A DNA stretch of 63,981 nucleotides, counting the filler, from an uncultured bacterium (GTDB taxonomy: Bacteria > Hinthialibacterota > Hinthialibacteria > Hinthialibacterales > Hinthialibacteraceae): assembly GCA_964449065.1 (NCBI GenBank). It is 3 parts of 3 records of this genome, joined end to end, with 100 filler letters (N's around TTAATTAATTAA, not from the genome) between each part and the next. Parts side by side here need not be neighbours in the genome. Positions count along the whole stretch, not along the records: positions 28,071 to 55,421 come from CAYVAZ010000021.1; 2 more parts are not named here. One strand, 5' to 3'. How positions within the stretch are numbered: the first letter of the stretch is position 1; each line of letters begins with the position of its first letter. The notes below the pieces were generated by a model, which saw only the letters and a list, made by a program, of their open reading frames with translations, was not told the DNA's origin and did not search any database. Below are positions 3,470 to 55,521 of the stretch, in pieces. The position numbers were made by a program, and so were the translations under genes.

Positions 3470-6250
3470 ATGCCTATGTTTAATCAAAAAATTCACAAAA
3501 TATTTACAATAATTTTTCTATTTTGTTCAATTCCATGCAATTCATTCGCTACAGTTGATGAGTTGGTTGGCTTGCTTCAGCCGGGAAATACGCAATCGGC
3601 GGTCTCAGAACTGAATTCCATTACGGGCGAATTATCCGCGAATGATCGCACAAAGATTCACGCGGCTTTGGAGAAACTTTCTCCCAGCGGAGATTGGATT
3701 CCCTTTTTGGAACAATTGAGTGAAAAAGTTGGCGATGACGGGCGGTTTGCGTTTCATGTGGCGCGGGCGAACTGGCGTGCCGGGCATGATGAGCAGGCGG
3801 TGAAGTGGTGCCGCAAAGCGGTGCGGCAATCGCCGAATGATACCGGGGTGTTGTATCAGTGTGCGGCCTTAGCGCATACGCTGGACCGGATTGACCTTGC
3901 AAGGACATGGCTCAAGCATTTGTTGACAATTGATACTGCCAATTCTGACGCGCTTTTTTTATTGGGGCGGATTGAGGCCAGCCAGGGGAACGATACCGAA
4001 GCGAAGGATGTGCTGCTGCAAGCGGTGCAGCAGGATAATTCTCACTTTTTAGCCTATTACGAATTGGGGAAACTGGAATTGCGGCAAGGTAATGCGGAAG
4101 CGGCGGAGAAGTATCTGAAAGCGGCGGTGTATTATTTTCCCTTCTTTCGCGAAGCGTATAACAACTTGACGACCGCGTTGGCGCGGCAGCGAAAACAGGA
4201 AGAAGCCAAGAAAGCCCAAGCAATCGCATCGTATTTAAAATCGTGGGTCGATGTGAAAGAGAACCGGCTGCGTTTCGCGTTCCGCAATCCGGGCGAGATT
4301 TCGCCGGAATTGGGATACGAATTGGCCGCGGAATTGTATAAGGTGCAGCGGGAAGATTTATCGCGTGCGTTTCTTGAGAGATCATTGTCGAACGGGACGG
4401 CAAATGGTCCGCAAAAATTATTGTTGGCACAGTTGCGCTTTAAAAACAAAAACTACAAAGATTGTTTGAGCGTTTTGGCGCAAATTGAAGATAACCGCGT
4501 CAAAGCATCGGAAACCTTCATTGAAGTGCTTACCTGGTCGTTGTATTACACCGGAAACAAAGAGGAAAGCCGGAACATCTTGGAAAAAACCATAGCACGC
4601 TTTCCGGATTCTGAGCATTTGAAGCGTTTACAGGAAACCTTAGCTAACAGTGAACCGGAAGATGAAGAAGGGATTGAATTGAGCCATTTTGTATTTAAGG
4701 ATGTGACGGAAGAAGTGGGATTGCATACGTTCAAACACATCATTGGCCATGCGGATAAGCGTTGGATTATTGACGCGATGGGCTCGGGTGTCGCGGTGGG
4801 GGATTATGACAACGACGGCGATGATGATTTGTATTTTGTCAACGCGCAGCCGGATGTTCTGAATCCCAGCGAAAAATATAGAAATGCCTTGTACCGCAAT
4901 GATGACGGCACGTTTACCGATGTAACCATGCAAGCCGGCGTTGGGCATACCGGATTCGGCAGCGGCGCTTTGTTTGGCGATGTGAACGGCGATGGCTGGT
5001 TGGATTTGTATATTACCAACTACGGCGCCAATGTTTTGTATCTAAATAATGGGGATGGAACATTTACCGATTTTACCCAAGAATCGGCCGCGGCGGGAGA
5101 TGAGTATTCGGCAACGGCGGCCTTTGGCGATGTCGATGGCGACGGTGATTTGGATTTGTATGTGGGCAACTATGTTGCGTTTGATCCGGTAAAACATAAG
5201 GATATCCGCGATTTGTTTCATGGGATTGAGGTGTTTACCGGCCCGCTTTCATTCGATGGTGTACCTGACAAACTCTACTTGAATGATGGTAAAGGGAAAT
5301 TCACAGATTTTACGGAGAAATCGAAGATCAACGTTTCGATCGGCAGAGCGATGGGGGCCATCTTTACCGATCTCGATTTGGATGGAGATTTGGATTTATA
5401 TGTGGCCAACGACGGCACCTTTAATCATGTCTTGCAGAATGATGGCAACGGTGTGTTTGAGGATATCAGTTTCTTTTCGGGCGGCGCGTTTAATGAGAGC
5501 GGGGTAGAGGGTGCCAGCATGGGCGTGGCGCAGGGTGATTATAACAACGACGGCTTGCTGGATGTTTATATTACCGCGTATGAGATGCAGCCGGATGTGC
5601 TTTATAAGAATATCGGGGAAGCGGGATTGGTTGATGTATCCGTGCCGGTTGGACTGAGTGGTACCTCAAGAATGCTGGTGACGTGGGGCAATGGGTTCTG
5701 CGATTTTGACAGCGATGGGCTGGTGGATCTATACAGCGTAAATGGGCATATCTATCCGCAGGTGGAAGAGTTGGAATCGGAACGGGAGTATGAACAGGGC
5801 ATTTCGTTCTATAAAAATACCGGCGGGCGGTTTGAAGATGTGACCGATCAATCCCTGCCGGATGATTTTGTTCCACATGGCGGGAGAGGTTCAGCTTTGC
5901 TGGATTATGACAGCGATGGGGATATGGATTTGGTGATTAACAACATTGATTCGCGACCGCAATTGCTGCGCAATGATACGCCCCCGGGAAATTGGCTGAA
6001 GGTGAAGTTGGATGCGGCATCGGCGCAGTCGTTTGGCGTGCGGGTGGTGGCAGAGAAGGGAAGCGCCAAATGGGCCGCGGTGGTGGATGGCGGTTCGAGT
6101 TATCAATCGCAAAATTCATCGACACTGCATTTCGGGTTTGGAAACGTAGATTCGATTGACAAACTGACCGTGTATTGGATGCATCGAGAGCCGACGGTGG
6201 TTGAAGAGCCGGCGTTAAATCAGACTCTATCGATTGCTGATAGTGAATGA
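3470..6250 (+). CDS. TPR + FG-GAP/ASPIC-UnbV (CRTAC1 family) protein
   Basis: N-terminal TPRs, multiple DYDNDGDxDLY repeats, C-terminal GGSSYQSQNSSTLHFGFG. Confidence 0.92.
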   Translation: MPMFNQKIHKIFTIIFLFCSIPCNSFATVDELVGLLQPGNTQSAVSELNSITGELSANDRTKIHAALEKLSPSGDWIPFLEQLSEKVGDDGRFAFHVARANWRAGHDEQAVKWCRKAVRQSPNDTGVLYQCAALAHTLDRIDLARTWLKHLLTIDTANSDALFLLGRIEASQGNDTEAKDVLLQAVQQDNSHFLAYYELGKLELRQGNAEAAEKYLKAAVYYFPFFREAYNNLTTALARQRKQEEAKKAQAIASYLKSWVDVKENRLRFAFRNPGEISPELGYELAAELYKVQREDLSRAFLERSLSNGTANGPQKLLLAQLRFKNKNYKDCLSVLAQIEDNRVKASETFIEVLTWSLYYTGNKEESRNILEKTIARFPDSEHLKRLQETLANSEPEDEEGIELSHFVFKDVTEEVGLHTFKHIIGHADKRWIIDAMGSGVAVGDYDNDGDDDLYFVNAQPDVLNPSEKYRNALYRNDDGTFTDVTMQAGVGHTGFGSGALFGDVNGDGWLDLYITNYGANVLYLNNGDGTFTDFTQESAAAGDEYSATAAFGDVDGDGDLDLYVGNYVAFDPVKHKDIRDLFHGIEVFTGPLSFDGVPDKLYLNDGKGKFTDFTEKSKINVSIGRAMGAIFTDLDLDGDLDLYVANDGTFNHVLQNDGNGVFEDISFFSGGAFNESGVEGASMGVAQGDYNNDGLLDVYITAYEMQPDVLYKNIGEAGLVDVSVPVGLSGTSRMLVTWGNGFCDFDSDGLVDLYSVNGHIYPQVEELESEREYEQGISFYKNTGGRFEDVTDQSLPDDFVPHGGRGSALLDYDSDGDMDLVINNIDSRPQLLRNDTPPGNWLKVKLDAASAQSFGVRVVAEKGSAKWAAVVDGGSSYQSQNSSTLHFGFGNVDSIDKLTVYWMHREPTVVEEPALNQTLSIADSE

Positions 6251-6266
6251 ATAGACAATCTGCAAT

Positions 6267-6488
6267 TTATATAGAAACGTTTGCATTCGTTGGTATGGAG
6301 GGTACTTTGTTTTCACTTTTGCAAAAATCCAGATAGTCTTCAACCGAATCGATAAATGCTTGTTCTAGTTCTTTTTGGGTTTTTCCTTCGAACGTGATGA
6401 CATCGGTGATTCCTGGAACGCGTCCGTGATAGATTTGATCTTCATCATCATATTCAATTTCCGCTATGTAACCTTTGTATTCCATCAT
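6267..6488 (-). CDS. hicB: HicB-family antitoxin, short form without adjacent hicA
   Basis: MEYKGYIAEIEYD..IYHGRVPGITDVITFEG...F.DSVEDYLDFC; lacks the C-terminal DNA-binding domain. Confidence 0.8.
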   Translation of the reverse strand: MMEYKGYIAEIEYDDEDQIYHGRVPGITDVITFEGKTQKELEQAFIDSVEDYLDFCKSENKVPSIPTNANVSI

Positions 6489-6616
6489 TTATCCCCTTCA
6501 CAATAAATTGTTTTTGTCACCATTATCATTTACTATAAGTAAATTTTATTTTTTTTTCAAACATATACTATTGCTAGTGTTTGATGTTGAATATCAAAAA
6601 TGGGGAGAATCTTGTC

Positions 6617-7921
6617 ATGTCATTTTCACGAAAACTATCCCGCCGGCGTTTTTCGAAACTGCTGGGACTACCTTTGATCGTCTCACCCCAGGTTTTGGGG
6701 TGGAATAACGCCGCCGCCGCGAATGACCGGATTACGCTGGGCGTGATCGGTTTGGGAACGATGGGCAAAGGGCATCTGTATGATGAGGCTTGGACGTATA
6801 TGGAAGGCGGTTACATCAGCCGCGACGATGTTCAGGTGCTTGCCGTTTGCGATGTATGGAAGAACCAGCGGGAAGAAAATCAGGACCGGGTTAACCAGCA
6901 TTACGCGGACACCAACCGAAAAGGGAACTATAAAGCGTGTGAGTCATACCGTGATTTTCGCGATTTGATTGCGCGGGAAGATATCGACGCGGTGTTGATT
7001 ACCACCCCGATTCATTGGCATGCAACCATGGCAACACTCGCTGCACGTGCCGGGAAAGATATCTATTGCGAAAAACCGACCGCGGTGACGATTAACGAAA
7101 GTCAAATTACCCGAAAAGCCGTACAAGAGAACAATGTTGTTTATCAAGCGGGGACGCAGCAGCGGTCTGAGTATGATGGCAAATTTCGCAGCGCGGCTGA
7201 ATATATCCGCAGCGGGAGAATCGGTGAGGTGAAGGAAGTATATGCGTATCGTCCTGGCGGGGGAGCAAACTGGGAGAAGCCCGTGGATGAAGTGAAGCCG
7301 GTTCCGGAACAGTTGGATTGGGATTTGTGGCTGGGACCCGCTCCGAAACGACCGTATGACGGGCGGTGGGACGCGCACTTCTTTGGTTTCGGCGGCATCA
7401 ATTGGGGACAGCACCATTATGATATCGTGCAGTGGTCGCTGGGCATGGATCATACCGGACCGGTTGAAATATCTGTTGATGAAGATGGCTATGCCGTTTA
7501 CCGCTATGCGAATGGTGTAAAGGTTTACGCGCGCCCGTATCCTGAAATGGATATGGAGCAAAAAATCAGTGAGACGGGCGGGGCATGGTTTATCGGGACG
7601 GAAGGGAAGATCGCGGTTGACCGGGAGCATTTAATCTCCGAGCCGGAAAGCATATTGAAGGAGCCGTTGAATGAAGAGGATGTGCATCTTTTCGAAAGCC
7701 CAGGGCATTCTGTGAACTTTTTGAATTGCATCCGCTCGCGTGAGAAGACGGTTTGCCATGCAGAGATCGCGCATCATTCGGTGAGTGTGCTGCTGTTAGG
7801 AGGAATCGCGCAGCAACTCAAGCGTACGCTGCTATGGAATCCCTCTTCGGAGACATTTGTGGAGGATGATGAGGCAAATACGATGCTGTCATTGGCGAAG
7901 AGGGAACCGTGGGTGATTTGA
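6617..7921 (+). CDS. Gfo/Idh/MocA oxidoreductase, Tat-exported
   Basis: SRRRF twin-Arg signal, GVIGLGTMG, IYCEKP, LDWDLWLGPAP. Confidence 0.9.
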   Translation: MSFSRKLSRRRFSKLLGLPLIVSPQVLGWNNAAAANDRITLGVIGLGTMGKGHLYDEAWTYMEGGYISRDDVQVLAVCDVWKNQREENQDRVNQHYADTNRKGNYKACESYRDFRDLIAREDIDAVLITTPIHWHATMATLAARAGKDIYCEKPTAVTINESQITRKAVQENNVVYQAGTQQRSEYDGKFRSAAEYIRSGRIGEVKEVYAYRPGGGANWEKPVDEVKPVPEQLDWDLWLGPAPKRPYDGRWDAHFFGFGGINWGQHHYDIVQWSLGMDHTGPVEISVDEDGYAVYRYANGVKVYARPYPEMDMEQKISETGGAWFIGTEGKIAVDREHLISEPESILKEPLNEEDVHLFESPGHSVNFLNCIRSREKTVCHAEIAHHSVSVLLLGGIAQQLKRTLLWNPSSETFVEDDEANTMLSLAKREPWVI

Positions 7922-8051
7922 AGTTGTTGCCTCTGTCCAGTGGGTTGCCGGTGGAAGATTTGATGTGACGTAAAGTCATGATCACAAATCATAAATGGAT
8001 ATAAATTTGTTTTTGCTATCATTAAAAAATTCAATTTTAAGGATCGTGAAC

Positions 8052-8747
8052 ATGATGAGAATTGCAATTCCGTTGACCGTATTGTTCATTTCTATCTGTT
8101 TCTATTCATGGATATTACCCCAAAGTTCCGCAAACAACGAATACATGGGAAGAACCATTGCCCGGACGATGCATTTTACCGGGGCGGAATGGTTGATCCG
8201 GGCTTCGCGAGCGCGGGAAGAAGCATCCGGTGAGGTGATGAAGCAGTTGAACCTGAAGCCGGGTATGGTGGTTGGTGATGTCGGCAGCGGGAACGGGTAT
8301 TACACCCTAAAAATTGCGAAGGTGGTTGGTGAAGAAGGCAAAGTGTATGCGGTGGATATCCAACAGGAGATGTTGGATATGCTGCAAGAGCGGGCGCGGG
8401 AAGAAGAACGAAACAATATCGTGCTTACGCGAGGGGAACTGCAAAAGACGAACTTGCCGAAAAACACTTTGGATTTGGTGCTGCTGGTGGATGTGTATCA
8501 TGAGTTTTCGCATCCGGCGGAGATGCTGGCGGATATCAAGGCGAGTTTGAAGCAAGATGGTAGAATCGCTTTGTTGGAATACCGTGCGGAAGACCCGGAT
8601 GTGCCGATTAAGCCGCTGCATAAGATGAGTAAAAAGCAAATCCTTAAAGAATATACTGCAAATGGATTTGAGTTGGTGGATGAGTATGACGGCTTGCCCT
8701 GGCAGCACATGATGTTTTTTGGGAAAGCGGATTCTCCCCAAGAATAG
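8052..8747 (+). CDS. class I SAM-dependent methyltransferase with signal peptide
   Basis: VVGDVGSGNGYY, YAVDIQQEML, LLVDVYHEF. Confidence 0.88.
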   Translation: MMRIAIPLTVLFISICFYSWILPQSSANNEYMGRTIARTMHFTGAEWLIRASRAREEASGEVMKQLNLKPGMVVGDVGSGNGYYTLKIAKVVGEEGKVYAVDIQQEMLDMLQERAREEERNNIVLTRGELQKTNLPKNTLDLVLLVDVYHEFSHPAEMLADIKASLKQDGRIALLEYRAEDPDVPIKPLHKMSKKQILKEYTANGFELVDEYDGLPWQHMMFFGKADSPQE

Positions 8748-25716: not shown

Positions 25717-25915
25717 AGCTGATCTTTACCCACATATCGGAGATGAATACACTCCAACCGGATGAAAGAAGATAGCCAGAGGCAGCGTAATAGATGGGTT
25801 TCGTAAAAAAAATGCCTTCCTCTCGGTTGCATTAAGGTCCTACTACCATTATCCAGGGTAGCACCGGCTTCCAGCCGGTACGTCAATCCGTACAACGCAA
25901 AATAAATATTACGAG

Positions 25916-26179
25916 TTCATGTTACGCATACGTAATGATATGCTCGTTAATTTCATCTACCGCTGTATCGATCGCCCTCGCCCACCGGGAGAGGGTGAGG
26001 GCTTAGGGAGACAATACCCTTTTTGTACACTACTGAGTAGTAGGGAGCAATCGCTCTCATCGCCCTCATCTCTTATCTTCTCCCAAAGGGAGAAGACGAT
26101 AGTTGTACGGAAAATTAAAGGGCTTTTAATATATCTCAATTTCAACATGAACTTTCTATTCTCTTTTGCGTAACGTCAG
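25916..26179. mobile_element. mini-element family B with GTTACGCA/TGCGTAAC inverted ends
   Basis: TTCATGTTACGCA ... TGCGTAACGTCAG enclosing CCCTCGCCCACCGGGAGAGGG (also at 2305) and CTTCTCCCAAAGGGAG (also at 19246). Confidence 0.65.
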
Positions 26180-27970: not shown

Positions 27971-28070
27971 NNNNNNNNNNNNNNNNNNNNNNNNNNNNNN
28001 NNNNNNNNNNNNNNTTAATTAATTAANNNNNNNNNNNNNNNNNNNNNNNNNNNNNNNNNNNNNNNNNNNN
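27971..28070. other. artificial contig linker
   Basis: N-run containing TTAATTAATTAA (stops in six frames). Confidence 0.95.
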
Positions 28071-28124
28071 ATTCAGCGAACGATTAGAAAAACGGGCATA
28101 TCATAATGTAATGCGTAACGTGAG

Positions 28125-28182
28125 TAAGTAATAAAACCTAACACTAAAACTTCCGCACCAGGCGAATGCGCTGAATCGACTC
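28125..28182 (+). repeat. 58-bp direct repeat of 29068-29125 (toxin stop plus 3' end of gene 29087..29734)
   Basis: First 40 bp identical, 55/58 overall. Confidence 0.92.
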
Positions 28183-28197
28183 TGTAGGAATGTTGTT

Positions 28198-28226
28198 TTG
28201 ACAAATCCGCTGAAATCAAATACCAT
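28198..28226 (+). promoter_or_regulatory. sigma70-type promoter
   Basis: TTGACA-N17-TACCAT. Confidence 0.6.
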
Positions 28227-28407
28227 TCCGATAAGAATATAATCGGTTCCCCTTTATGAGATCTTCAGAAATGGGAGGGTTTGAGGCATTGAGCGTTTAA
28301 CCCCCCACCTAGCTTCCCCCATTGCATTGGGGGGAGGAATGAGAAATTCGATTCAATTTTTTGAAAATGCACTTTATATCGCTGACCTGTTACCTGTTTT
28401 ACAACCG

Positions 28408-28446
28408 TTAAAATTTTCGCGCCAGGCGGATGCGTTTGATGGACTC
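28408..28446 (-). pseudogene. second extra copy of the 3' end of gene 29087..29734
   Basis: Encodes ESIKRIRLARKF* versus ESIKRIRLVRKF*. Confidence 0.85.
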
Positions 28447-28461
28447 ATTGAGAACATTCTT

Positions 28462-28492
28462 TTGACAAATTTCGGTTTTTGCGTAATATAAT
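28462..28492 (+). promoter_or_regulatory. sigma70-type promoter of the TA operon
   Basis: TTGACA followed by overlapping TAATAT (N16) and TATAAT (N19). Confidence 0.55.
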
Positions 28493-28513
28493 AAATACAA
28501 TTTTGCTGTTAGA

Positions 28514-28810
28514 ATGAAAAAAATCATTATGCCTACTACACAAGATGTCATCCATGCTTTTCTCAAACTTCCACCAAAACAGCAAGAAGAAGTTAGAGAA
28601 TTTGTCAACTCAACCTGCAATGAAGCGAACTTCCTTGTTCAGGCGTTCGACGCTGACTATGTCAGGGAAGAAAATTATTCGCAAGAAGATCAAACTGTCC
28701 TGGATCAATGCCAAGAAGATGCCCGCAAGGGAATCAATACAAGCGGCCCGTTTAAAGGAAAAGAAGCCATTGACTTTTTAACCGAATTAGAGAAACAATC
28801 TCATCATTAA
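28514..28810 (+). CDS. putative antitoxin
   Basis: Small acidic protein abutting the toxin; LPPKQQEEVREFV and GINTSGPF segments. Confidence 0.7.
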   Translation: MKKIIMPTTQDVIHAFLKLPPKQQEEVREFVNSTCNEANFLVQAFDADYVREENYSQEDQTVLDQCQEDARKGINTSGPFKGKEAIDFLTELEKQSHH

Positions 28811-29074
28811 ATGGAAATCCATTATCACAAAAAGTTCACCAAAGCGTTTCTTAAGATCCCACCCAAAATTCGAGAGAAAGTAAAAGAATTAATAGAAGTG
28901 TTTCAAGAAAATCCGCATAATCCAGAACTGGACAATCACGCCCTTCACGGGAAACAAAAAGGGCAACGCTCTATTTCTGTTGGGGGTGACATGCGCATCA
29001 TTTTTGTGGAAGAGAATAATTATGAAACCGTTGTTTTACTGAACGTAGGAACCCACAATCAAGTATATAAGTAA
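28811..29074 (+). CDS. RelE/StbE/YafQ-family mRNA interferase toxin
   Basis: KKFTKAF, HALHGK, SISVGGDMRIIF, VGTHNQVY. Confidence 0.9.
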   Translation: MEIHYHKKFTKAFLKIPPKIREKVKELIEVFQENPHNPELDNHALHGKQKGQRSISVGGDMRIIFVEENNYETVVLLNVGTHNQVYK

Positions 29075-29086
29075 TAAAACCTAACA

Positions 29087-29734
29087 CTAAAACTTCCGCA
29101 CCAGGCGGATGCGCTTGATCGACTCAATCGGCACGTCAGGCAGGGAAACGGCAAACCGCCGGGCAAACGGGGCGCGTCCCGGGATGGTGGCGGGCAGCCG
29201 GTTTGAGTAAAAATCCTTGGTGATCATCAACTCATCGTTTTGGTTATAGAAGTACATCCGAAAATCAATCCCATAAATGTCTTGTTGCCCGTTGTTGACC
29301 AGCAATCCTATAAAAAATGATCCACGGCGGTTAAAAAATGAATACCGTGTGGGGTATATCGCGAATTTTGTAATCTCAAACCCGTTCTCCACATCCAATA
29401 ATACGGCTTTGTCGTCTTCCGTGGGGATGGTGGTTGTGGTGGTGATTTCGCGGGTAATGCTCCAAACGGTTGTGGTGGCTTCATGCACAAAATCCGTGGC
29501 GTTAACGACTTGCCCGGTCGTCGGTTTTTGCACACCCTGAACCACCTCGCGCACCTGAATATCCTTAAAAAACTGCGAACGGCCGTCCGGTTGGGTCAGC
29601 GTATAGCCGCCCTGCACCTTTTGCGCGGTGCCGTAGCGGAAATCGCCGTTGCGGAAAATGATCAAATCCGCATATAAACTTAACGCGGTCCCGAAAAATA
29701 TACATGCGGCGATAAATAAACGAAACCTATTCAT
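29087..29734 (-). CDS. exported hypothetical protein (FxLYD-like C-terminal domain)
   Basis: Signal peptide, ADLIIFRNGD, GLLVNNG..FYNQNDEL. Confidence 0.75.
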   Translation of the reverse strand: MNRFRLFIAACIFFGTALSLYADLIIFRNGDFRYGTAQKVQGGYTLTQPDGRSQFFKDIQVREVVQGVQKPTTGQVVNATDFVHEATTTVWSITREITTTTTIPTEDDKAVLLDVENGFEITKFAIYPTRYSFFNRRGSFFIGLLVNNGQQDIYGIDFRMYFYNQNDELMITKDFYSNRLPATIPGRAPFARRFAVSLPDVPIESIKRIRLVRKF

Positions 29735-29847: not shown

Positions 29848-30645
29848 ATGAACCAAGAAACCAGCCAAACCGGTAAGAAATTCGAGCATCTGGTCCAGAT
29901 CATGGCCCGGCTGCGCGCCCCTGATGGTTGCCCGTGGGATCAGGAACAGTCGCACGAATCGCTGAAGAAGTATCTTATTGAAGAAGCCTACGAACTGCTG
30001 GAAAGCATAGACGGTAAAGATGATGCCGCCATGACTGAAGAATGCGGGGATGTGCTGCTGCAAGTGGTGTTTCATGCCCAGATCGCCAAGGATGAAGGCC
30101 GCTTTACCATAGATGACGTAATTGATTCCATCAGCAACAAACTGGTGCGGCGGCATCCGCATGTCTTTGGCGACCGCGAAGCCCACGACGCGGAAGAAGT
30201 GCTGCGCAATTGGGAAGCGGATAAGCAAAAAGAAAAGCCGGAACGCAATTCCGTGCTGGACGGTATCCCCAAGGCCATGCCCGCGTTGATGCGGGCGCAT
30301 CAACTGCAAAAAAAGGCCGCGCGCGTCGGCTTTGATTGGGATCATACCGAAGATGTGTTAGACAAGATCGAAGAAGAGATTCAAGAAGTGCGCGAAGCCA
30401 TTAAAGAAAACAAGCCTGAAAAAGTGCACGATGAAATGGGCGATTTATTCTTCGCGTTGGTTAACCTCGCCCGCTTTTTGGATATCTATTCGGAAGAAGC
30501 GCTGCAAAGTACCAACCACAAGTTCACCCAACGATTTCAATATATCGAACAAAAATTGAAAGAGCAAGGCAAAAAACCCGAAGACAGCAACCTGGAAGAA
30601 ATGGATAAACTGTGGGAAGAGGCGAAGAAAGAAGTACGGTTATGA
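29848..30645 (+). CDS. mazG: nucleoside triphosphate pyrophosphohydrolase MazG
   Basis: LRAPDGCPWDQEQ, EEAYE, RRHPHVF, GFDW, EMGDLFF. Confidence 0.95.
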   Translation: MNQETSQTGKKFEHLVQIMARLRAPDGCPWDQEQSHESLKKYLIEEAYELLESIDGKDDAAMTEECGDVLLQVVFHAQIAKDEGRFTIDDVIDSISNKLVRRHPHVFGDREAHDAEEVLRNWEADKQKEKPERNSVLDGIPKAMPALMRAHQLQKKAARVGFDWDHTEDVLDKIEEEIQEVREAIKENKPEKVHDEMGDLFFALVNLARFLDIYSEEALQSTNHKFTQRFQYIEQKLKEQGKKPEDSNLEEMDKLWEEAKKEVRL

Positions 30646-36288: not shown

Positions 36289-36642
36289 TTATTCTAATGG
36301 TAAATACGCAACTTGGTTGTCCCACTCATCTATGTCACTGCAGTAGACAAATAAAACAAGGTCATCTACTACTTTTTTTACTGGTGCATGGCATTTTATT
36401 TCTACTACGCCCGGCATGGGTAGTCCTTTTCGAACGCGATCATAGGCATAATGAGTAATGGTAGAAATATCATGAGTCAGTAAAATTCTCTTTTCGTTTG
36501 CCGCCCATTCCAATATTTTTGGATCTTTCAGTCCAGACAATCCAGCGTCTTGAACACGTATCAGATCGAATTCCGGCATTCGATTTCGTAATACACGGAT
36601 AATTAAATTGTTAAAGTTTTCATCAGTAGCCAAACGTATCAT
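36289..36642 (-). CDS. DUF5615 PIN-like toxin
   Basis: LATDENF, DPKILEWA..EKRILLTHD. Confidence 0.88.
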   Translation of the reverse strand: MIRLATDENFNNLIIRVLRNRMPEFDLIRVQDAGLSGLKDPKILEWAANEKRILLTHDISTITHYAYDRVRKGLPMPGVVEIKCHAPVKKVVDDLVLFVYCSDIDEWDNQVAYLPLE

Positions 36643-36998
36643 GATCCGGTCATATTATGTTTCATTCTGGCTAATAGCCGTTCCCGAATCCCTGTTTGAT
36701 CAAAGCGCGCCTCTACTTCTTTTCTTACGGCTTCATGCTGCTTTTCCCGCTTTTGCAAATAGGAATTTACATTCTCTTTGTTATGCAGATAGTATGCTAT
36801 AACTTGATAAATATCAGCAAGATGCAAGACCGGATATTGTATCGCAATTTCTTCCGCCGTTGCACCTTGTTCAAATGTTGCTACCACCGTGTCTAGCGTC
36901 ACACGTGTGCCACCAACGCGGATCACTCCATCTTGGTCATAAGCCAGAGGCAATTTTGTATCGACAAGTTCAGCCGTCATGATCGGTTCTCCTGCCAA
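36639..36998 (-). CDS. DUF433 antitoxin
   Basis: GVIRVGGTRVTLDTVV..FEQGATAEEI..QYP.L.LADIY..IAYYL. Confidence 0.9.
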   Translation of the reverse strand: MAGEPIMTAELVDTKLPLAYDQDGVIRVGGTRVTLDTVVATFEQGATAEEIAIQYPVLHLADIYQVIAYYLHNKENVNSYLQKREKQHEAVRKEVEARFDQTGIRERLLARMKHNMTGS

Positions 36999-55421: not shown

Positions 55422-55521
55422 NNNNNNNNNNNNNNNNNNNNNNNNNNNNNNNNNNNNNNNNNNNNTTAATTAATTAANNNNNNNNNNNNNNNNNNNNNNN
55501 NNNNNNNNNNNNNNNNNNNNN
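55422..55521. other. artificial contig linker
   Basis: N-run containing TTAATTAATTAA. Confidence 0.95.

Follow-up and report, generated by a model that had tools for sequence, protein, structure and literature searches.

Tandem copies of a gene's 3' end flank a toxin-antitoxin operon in an uncultured Hinthialibacterota bacterium: possible scars of homology-anchored gene import

The window, the whole 63,981-nt stretch of DNA that we analyzed, consists of three contigs joined by linkers (TTAATTAATTAA spacer; Table 1); neighborhoods across the linkers are therefore not real, and the DNA to the left of position 27971 belongs to another contig. The locus of interest opens contig C21, one of 515 contigs in a genome (G000) of 5.2 Mb and 87% completeness. 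It is built around a host gene whose product matched only hypothetical-protein clusters, apart from one weak SHD1 lead at 0.84, and whose last residues are largely invariant among six sequences. While mazG is retained upstream in relatives, the downstream neighbor varies; here it is a convergently oriented toxin gene. Judged by mazG, the nearest relative that has a name bears the label Candidatus Omnitrophota, given by its depositor. The toxin scores above its family cut-off and has a small gene directly upstream, a layout that suggests a single RelE/StbE type II toxin-antitoxin (TA) operon. A pattern scan of the species' genomes for the antitoxin found none. The GC content of the module formed by toxin, antitoxin and promoter is 35-39%, as compared to 50% in the host gene. 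Searches for structured RNA (Rfam) and for a plasmid origin gave no match.

Two further copies of the end of the host gene, which we call orphan tails A and B, lie beyond the TA operon. The sequence-only reading had described three copies of this 3' end, and the coordinates and codons are as it claimed, as is its count of seven synonymous changes among the nine substitutions in A and B relative to the live tail. Random change would give 25% synonymous substitutions (P 0.001) and decay of a fresh duplicate 43% (P 0.04). A chance match of 33 of 39 nt has a probability of about 3e-7 after correction for all 3,699 genes. Both nonsynonymous changes hit residues that are invariant in the six orthologue sequences, and for this reason they probably represent decay after orphaning. 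The 3' 21 nt of A are identical to the live tail, and the stop codon of B is TAA where the live tail has TAG. Copy A and the live copy also share 19 nt past the stop codon, such that positions 28125-28164 and 29068-29107 match exactly over 40 nt; the toxin's end and the spacer after it are thus part of the outermost copy, as had been proposed. The 12 nt behind copy B (28396-28407) do not resemble the live spacer. A and B start at the same base of the host gene, and for both TTTTGACAAAT stands 13 nt past the tail end (28196-28206 and 28460-28470).

Table 1. Features of the locus and linkers in the window. Difference positions in the tails are counted back from the last base of the host gene.
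Feature	Position	Strand	Remarks
N linkers	27971-28070 and 55422-55521	.	spacer between joined contigs
MITE r1, right end	28072..28125	.	125 blastn hits in the genome; cuts off array and contig
Copied toxin end (last six bases) and 12-nt spacer	28126-28143	+	first five bases also fit MITE target site
Orphan tail A	28144-28182	-	36/39 identical to live tail; differs at -31, -30, -22 only
Gene-less module remnant	28183..28272	+	family-type -35 box, leader-like stretch; weak, E 0.039 within locus; shuffle P 0.023
Hairpin repeat r2, multicopy	28273..28395	.	86 blastn hits in G000; lacks left part seen in other copies
Orphan tail B	28408-28446	-	33/39 identical to live tail; differs at -34, -28, -14, -10, -7, -1
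Native TA-family promoter (extended -35 and -10)	28456..28494	+	nhmmer E 4.9e-5, best genome-wide match
Putative antitoxin, 98 aa	28514..28810	+	no family match; start maybe 28529; upstream of toxin homologues in relatives
RelE/StbE (YafQ-like) toxin, 87 aa	28811..29074	+	TIGR02385 44.8 bits (cut-off 27.9); PF15738 34.7 (cut-off 30)
Live tail (last 13 codons of host gene)	29087-29125	-	reference for A and B
Host gene, 215 aa, no assigned function	29087..29734	-	conserved C-terminus; in 19/19 same-family genomes
mazG	29848..30645	+	divergent upstream neighbor; in all orthologous loci examined

When a profile was built from nine leaders that precede this TA family in other genomes, its best match in the present genome was the promoter upstream of the antitoxin, indicating that this promoter belongs to the TA operon itself; in other genomes it occurs without gene tails. 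The sequence-only reading had both orphans running into a shared -35 box, as a promoter fused to the tail. The box is indeed present after both, but what follows the tail is the native promoter of the TA family. Only copy B leads into the full promoter and its genes, whereas after copy A there is a -35 box and no gene. Being the family consensus, the box was rejected as proof of a common junction. The leader-like stretch after A runs into a truncated copy of the repeat r2, relatives of which are also found in two further genomes (G003 and G014). Complete copies of the MITE r1 are 271-279 bp long, with 14-bp terminal inverted repeats, internal hairpins and often a 5-bp AT-rich target duplication (seen in 12 of the 46 strand-rows that represent complete copies). 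Its ends are common to several internal subtypes; with at least 125 matches in G000, r1 is a main cause of contig breaks, and it also occurs at about 25907-25968. Outward from the host gene, the array reads as an intact module, a gene-less module and a MITE-truncated end, and this order of decay fits the serial addition at the gene terminus that had been proposed.

In favor of a misassembly, the locus lies 54 nt from a contig end, at a low depth of about 4-7 and between two multicopy repeats. Contigs from public run X1 match positions 28135-28834, 28805-29097 and 29078-29429 with zero differences and together reach all three copies; they end exactly at the 40-nt repeat, where a true repeat must break them, and a contig from run X2 covers 28582-29125. 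The three copies are spread over separate X1 and X2 contigs, none of which spans all three. The three public runs belong to one study, and X1 is possibly the source sample, so that this comparison checks the assembly and not its generality. The copies differ from each other in a codon-biased manner, and the 15 other loci described below are located inside contigs. An artifact of assembly, which had been named as a possible refutation, is accordingly extremely improbable. Beyond r1, several open contig ends fit the 5-bp target, none of them with a toxin end or with support from synteny. Run X1 also contains a 97-nt contig at 28738-28834 in which the end of the antitoxin gene shows eight differences and leads into the same start of the toxin gene; two of the six listed changes alter residues, pointing to a second allele or a sister strain.

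We compared the locus to those of relatives, all of them members of other genera, not independent of each other and partly chosen for their TA content. At the DNA level, a copy of the tail was absent from all 24 orthologous loci, which represent 23 genomes and L045; five of these have less than 700 nt downstream and one, L034, has a mis-set tail. At the protein level there was no convincing copy, only one weak match without a stop codon (L029). A hotspot at the same site in relatives was rejected on these grounds. In the closest orthologue with DNA available (L045, 73%) there is no TA gene in 351 nt, and an efp-like gene is next. Downstream of the orthologue L026 (G003, another genus), a convergent PIN-like TA pair, recognized by eye, occupies positions 27-750 without an orphan tail. 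Among 20 loci of the same TA family in relatives, none shows a gene-tail repeat and one is bracketed by a gene head, ruling out that this family is always bracketed. In relatives, members of this family frequently border the end of a convergent gene, the layout that would be required of a donor. In G013, two or three diverged modules of this family lie in tandem (L141 3869-5630, L142, L143, L144), with no host tails between them.

To survey the genome for similar footprints, the last 36 nt of each of 3,699 ORFs of at least 120 codons were searched for downstream, giving 61 matches. A second scan with controls gave 19 matches downstream and six upstream for the tail probe, four and three for a mid-gene probe, none on the reverse strand, and 11 upstream for a head probe; classification by self-BLAST gave 14 tail-downstream and three head-upstream pairs. 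The pairs were hand-picked. Excluded were CRISPR matches (C117), paralogue pairs (C51, C63, C96, C102, C112, C197, C251, C300 and the second C195 pair), repeats running far past the stop codon (C42, C124, C129) and cases with N gaps (the short C84 pair and C205). The resulting 17 tail pairs are found at 16 unrelated single-copy genes, including proA, nadC, gntK, mgtE, a nucleoside phosphorylase, two sulfatases and two radical SAM genes, with orphans of 22-231 bp that end at or near the stop codon and not at random places. The host gene of the present locus is the only one with three copies; its tail and junctions match only this contig, each of the 15 other loci repeats its own gene, and no junction motif common to the 16 was found. 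Across 1.18 Mb of relatives (827 ORFs) there were no orphan tails, compared to about 3.4 expected (P about 0.035), suggesting that this genome is unusual. In relatives, gntK and gnd are at most about 100 nt apart in three of ten loci and at most 500 nt apart in two more, with gnd not seen in the other five; here they are separated by 1.4 kb containing TA modules. The gene downstream of proA is not conserved over 21 loci, and for that reason this site offers no comparison.

The GC content of all 16 inserts is lower than that of their host gene end, and eight to ten inserts carry TA-like cargo, eight by Pfam domain (RelE, ParE-like, PIN twice, DUF433/DUF5615, UPF0175/DUF3368, DUF4258 and an HTH antitoxin-like gene) and two more by eye only; the other six contain other genes. 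We take the DUF domains to have a role in TA systems. The genome holds at least 79 TA markers; 53 of 79 have a testable tail-facing neighbor, and of these four are bracketed, as compared to one of 420 control genes (P 6.5e-4), which is itself a PIN toxin. TA cargo is thus enriched, yet more than nine-tenths of TA loci have no such scar. Duplicated gene ends at other TA loci, the lack of which had been offered as grounds for rejection, are therefore present. On the same contig as the array, a TA-like DUF433-DUF5615 pair (36289-36998) has no tail bracket.

The sequence-only reading suggested that the tails were once functional alleles, and the genome-wide pairs support this. Over 17 pairs and 502 codons, differences number 15, 23 and 72 at codon positions 1, 2 and 3 (72 of 110 at the third), corresponding to a pooled pN/pS of 0.17-0.23 depending on the assumed transition bias; a first pass, over 20 pairs that included three misaligned ones, arrived at 0.22. 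The synonymous share is 64%, compared to the 35-45% predicted for neutral decay of a fresh duplicate, which is rejected at P 9e-5 to 8e-10 over six settings. Since orphans were detected by nucleotide identity only, third positions were not favored. An in-register stop codon is kept in 13 of the 17 orphans, six of which use a different one. Decay is seen as well, in the form of two frameshifts and internal stops. Divergence biased toward the 3' end, hinted at by C58, C72, C148 and C170, is not general (mismatch quartiles 40/25/24/21). On these grounds the orphans look like once-coding alleles and not like decayed duplicates.

The proposal of a dedicated, integron-like cassette system found no support. 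The best match to the integron integrase IntI (TIGR02249) in the 87% complete genome scores 69 bits against a cut-off of 265. The ends of attC sites have the form RYYYAAC ... GTTRRRY; ACCTAAC follows the toxin stop codon, but inspection by eye of about 140 nt revealed no second end to match it. An attC-like fold is absent, with z-scores of -0.34, 0.87 and 0.57 for the orphan regions and -0.98 and -2.35 for the live coding context. No single repeat family is common to cassettes in the array or the genome: the tail occurs at this locus alone, and the repeats at the 16 genes vary in length without a shared motif. Most TA markers lack a bracket, six of the 16 inserts carry non-TA cargo, and same-family loci in relatives are without tail repeats. 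Of five tyrosine recombinase matches in the genome, none is on this contig or the 16 host contigs; no serine resolvase was matched; and no cognate integrase-bearing element was found on this contig, which ends at the array, nor does a tail copy mark one at the 24 loci of the other genera.

We favor, at a probability of roughly 60%, the reading that the array consists of stacked scars of gene import anchored by homology and carried out by host recombination, with no dedicated recombinase. The many targets, variable lengths, absence of a motif or recombinase, and allelic nature of the repeats speak for recombination by the host with donor DNA bearing the gene end. In such a scheme, a related lineage would have the TA operon directly behind the host gene. 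A donor fragment with gene end and operon would enter the cell and be trimmed and circularized, after which a single crossover within the gene end common to both would integrate it, as in an E. coli analogue at another gene; alternatively, one homologous and one short-homology junction would be formed. The donor end would complete the gene and push the recipient's old end behind the cargo. The stacked tails suggest that this happened at least twice here, with each new module presumably placed next to the live gene and the existing orphan tail available as a ready second junction for later donors, which would explain why A and B start at the same base. Entry next to the live gene fits the 3' identity of A to the live copy and the different downstream piece of B. 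The older modules would then have decayed, one losing its genes by a deletion ending in a repeat and the other cut by the MITE. Repeat-flanked inserts would tend to loop out, and addiction would favor those with a TA pair; TA addiction may in this way preserve the scar. The enrichment of TA cargo is most simply explained as survivorship through putative addiction, along the lines of the stabilization model (PMC2654758).

Consistent with import, the 17 pairs read as two copies from different coding alleles, the excess of tails is directional, inserts are low in GC, the TA family is found at convergent gene ends, and gntK and gnd have the layout described above. The genome encodes ComEC and DprA. 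Several points count against it. A 39-bp stretch at 85-92% identity is short for a RecA-type crossover, and mutS is present in the genome; no orphan tails were found in the 1.18 Mb of relatives, and neither a donor nor an empty site at strain level was seen among the genomes compared, which belong to other genera. The main difficulty is the identical start of A and B, which fits one shared old junction or an att site, and this start, 13 nt from the -35 box, is explained as easily by site-specific recombination. In favor of import, a comparable product is known from E. coli, where the end of lacZ was duplicated over 109-950 bp in 56 of 60 clones through a single crossover of trimmed, re-circularized donor DNA. 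Textbook homology-facilitated illegitimate recombination (HFIR) yields deletions and not duplications, which speaks against import (PMC3240628).

The identical start also fits an unlikely alternative, namely that the modules are remnants similar to CIMEs or microCIMEs. The gene's 3' end would be the attB of a tyrosine integrase, at which elements integrated in tandem, each re-forming the terminus of the gene before being cut down to att sites and a TA module. Decay is more advanced in the module farther from the gene, and the middle module contains no gene and measures about 140 bp without the repeat, comparable to the 130-220 bp of microCIMEs (PMC7563491). With A differing on the 5' side and B on the 3' side, a crossover could have taken place in seven nucleotides (-21 to -15) that form the center of a small palindrome, and as the contig ends here, an intact element could lie beyond. 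Synonymous changes nevertheless fall on both sides of the proposed crossover, no recombinase match lies on this contig or the other host contigs, and the orthologous loci hold no tail copy. About 16 different integrases would be needed, each lost exactly. The repeats vary tenfold in length without a motif. It is unlikely, too, that the modules are integrase-free cassettes that are bracketed by tails, loop out as circles, re-enter the same gene end in neighbors and stack, with addiction preventing their loss and a host or trans-acting factor tolerating short, diverged homology. If true, such a cycle would be a direct route for chromosomal TA movement without a mobile element.

Duplication of the target at insertion, by a staggered break or a long-duplication transposition whose copies then decayed or underwent gene conversion, would suit the pairs that are nearly identical over 83-175 bp (C148, C58). 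Decay of identical copies is rejected by the surplus of synonymous changes and stop-codon swaps, and the repeats end at or near stop codons when random ends would be expected, which makes this decidedly unlikely. Still less can be said for one old insertion that multiplied within the chromosome as live and orphan tails crossed over unequally, although A shares its 3' 21 nt and the 19 nt past the stop codon with the live copy and amplification through flanking repeats is reported for restriction-modification (RM) systems (PMC2853133). The two promoter regions agree at 17 of 28 positions, no more than each does with leaders from other genomes (up to 17 and 20 of 28), the pieces downstream of A and B differ, and the assembly contains no second close TA copy; we regard this origin as very improbable.

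The footprint resembles several known systems. RM systems can insert with long target duplications (Furuta, Abe and Kobayashi 2010, PMC2853133; Nobusato et al. 2000 as cited there): an addictive gene pair stands between long, variable, locus-unique direct repeats without integrase or transposase, some of the repeats extend over the 3' ends of genes, and most cases are from competent species. Likewise, the direct repeats here (39 and 58 bp, spaced 679 and 264 bp apart) exceed 30 bp and are unique in the genome, and the inserts are smaller than 20 kb and contain a TA pair and noncoding repeat only, without mobility genes. In contrast to RM systems, type II TA modules and further small genes make up the cargo at our loci, which lacks a DNA-cutting nuclease (no RM genes are present in the insert), the repeats are diverged coding alleles that end at the stop codon, and three copies stack at one gene. 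The single-crossover or HFIR events of E. coli similarly import foreign DNA by one-sided homology and leave a gene-end duplication; they involved a laboratory plasmid, a rate of about 4e-9 per recipient and identical homology (PMC3240628), while here the homology is 22-231 bp and diverged, the genome is a wild one and the mechanism is inferred.

In Streptococcus salivarius, CIMEs and microCIMEs accrete at the 3' ends of rpsI, rpmG, fda and rplL as tandem integrase-less modules, the most decayed being farthest and gene-less remnants measuring 130-220 bp; those modules adjoin an ICE or IME that supplies the integrase, at few fixed sites (PMC7563491), and no such element was found here. The present repeats likewise match the 3' end of a gene that stays intact, and the module most distant from it is the most decayed. 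Serial insertion also pushes older 3' ends into an orphan array in T6SS effector-immunity and rhs loci, for which HFIR has been proposed; the displaced 3' end is there the variable payload (PMC5361080), whereas in our array the conserved tail is only the anchor. In integron arrays, TA modules that have their own promoter can stand in a row delimited by repeats (PMC2654758); the present array, in contrast, has neither IntI nor attC, and its repeat is specific to one host gene. By analogy, the locus works like CIME or orphan-module accretion, a likeness that does not establish membership.

In the literature searched, we found no description of TA modules with such a footprint, although supplementary lists could hold examples; the available portions of PMC2884548, PMC3457768 and PMC3874152 describe no TA case. 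Chromosomal TA systems are patchy in distribution and often without a mobile element. At the 16 scars the duplicated target is readable as coding sequence and the copies are different alleles, which makes import by way of a relative's gene end more plausible than duplication at insertion. An orphan tail combined with synonymous bias and a swapped stop codon constitutes a genome-only test applicable to any assembly, and the three-copy locus is the sole place where the order of modules and the reuse of the anchor can be studied.

Other repeat arrangements were observed during the survey. Mirror-image scars, in which a gene start is duplicated upstream, occur at L079 (G000 C11), L080 (C144), G000 C48 and L160 (G014); those at C11, C144 and L160 enclose TA-like cargo. 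A nucleotidyltransferase-HEPN pair is amplified in tandem with a 739-bp period (L064 2653-4514, G000 C195), as is a small repeat-flanked gene on C124 (12560-13950). Contig C117, which bears two tyrosine recombinase matches, contains a CRISPR-like array on the minus strand (about 6000-8300) with a repeat of about 36 nt and a period of 65-66 nt.
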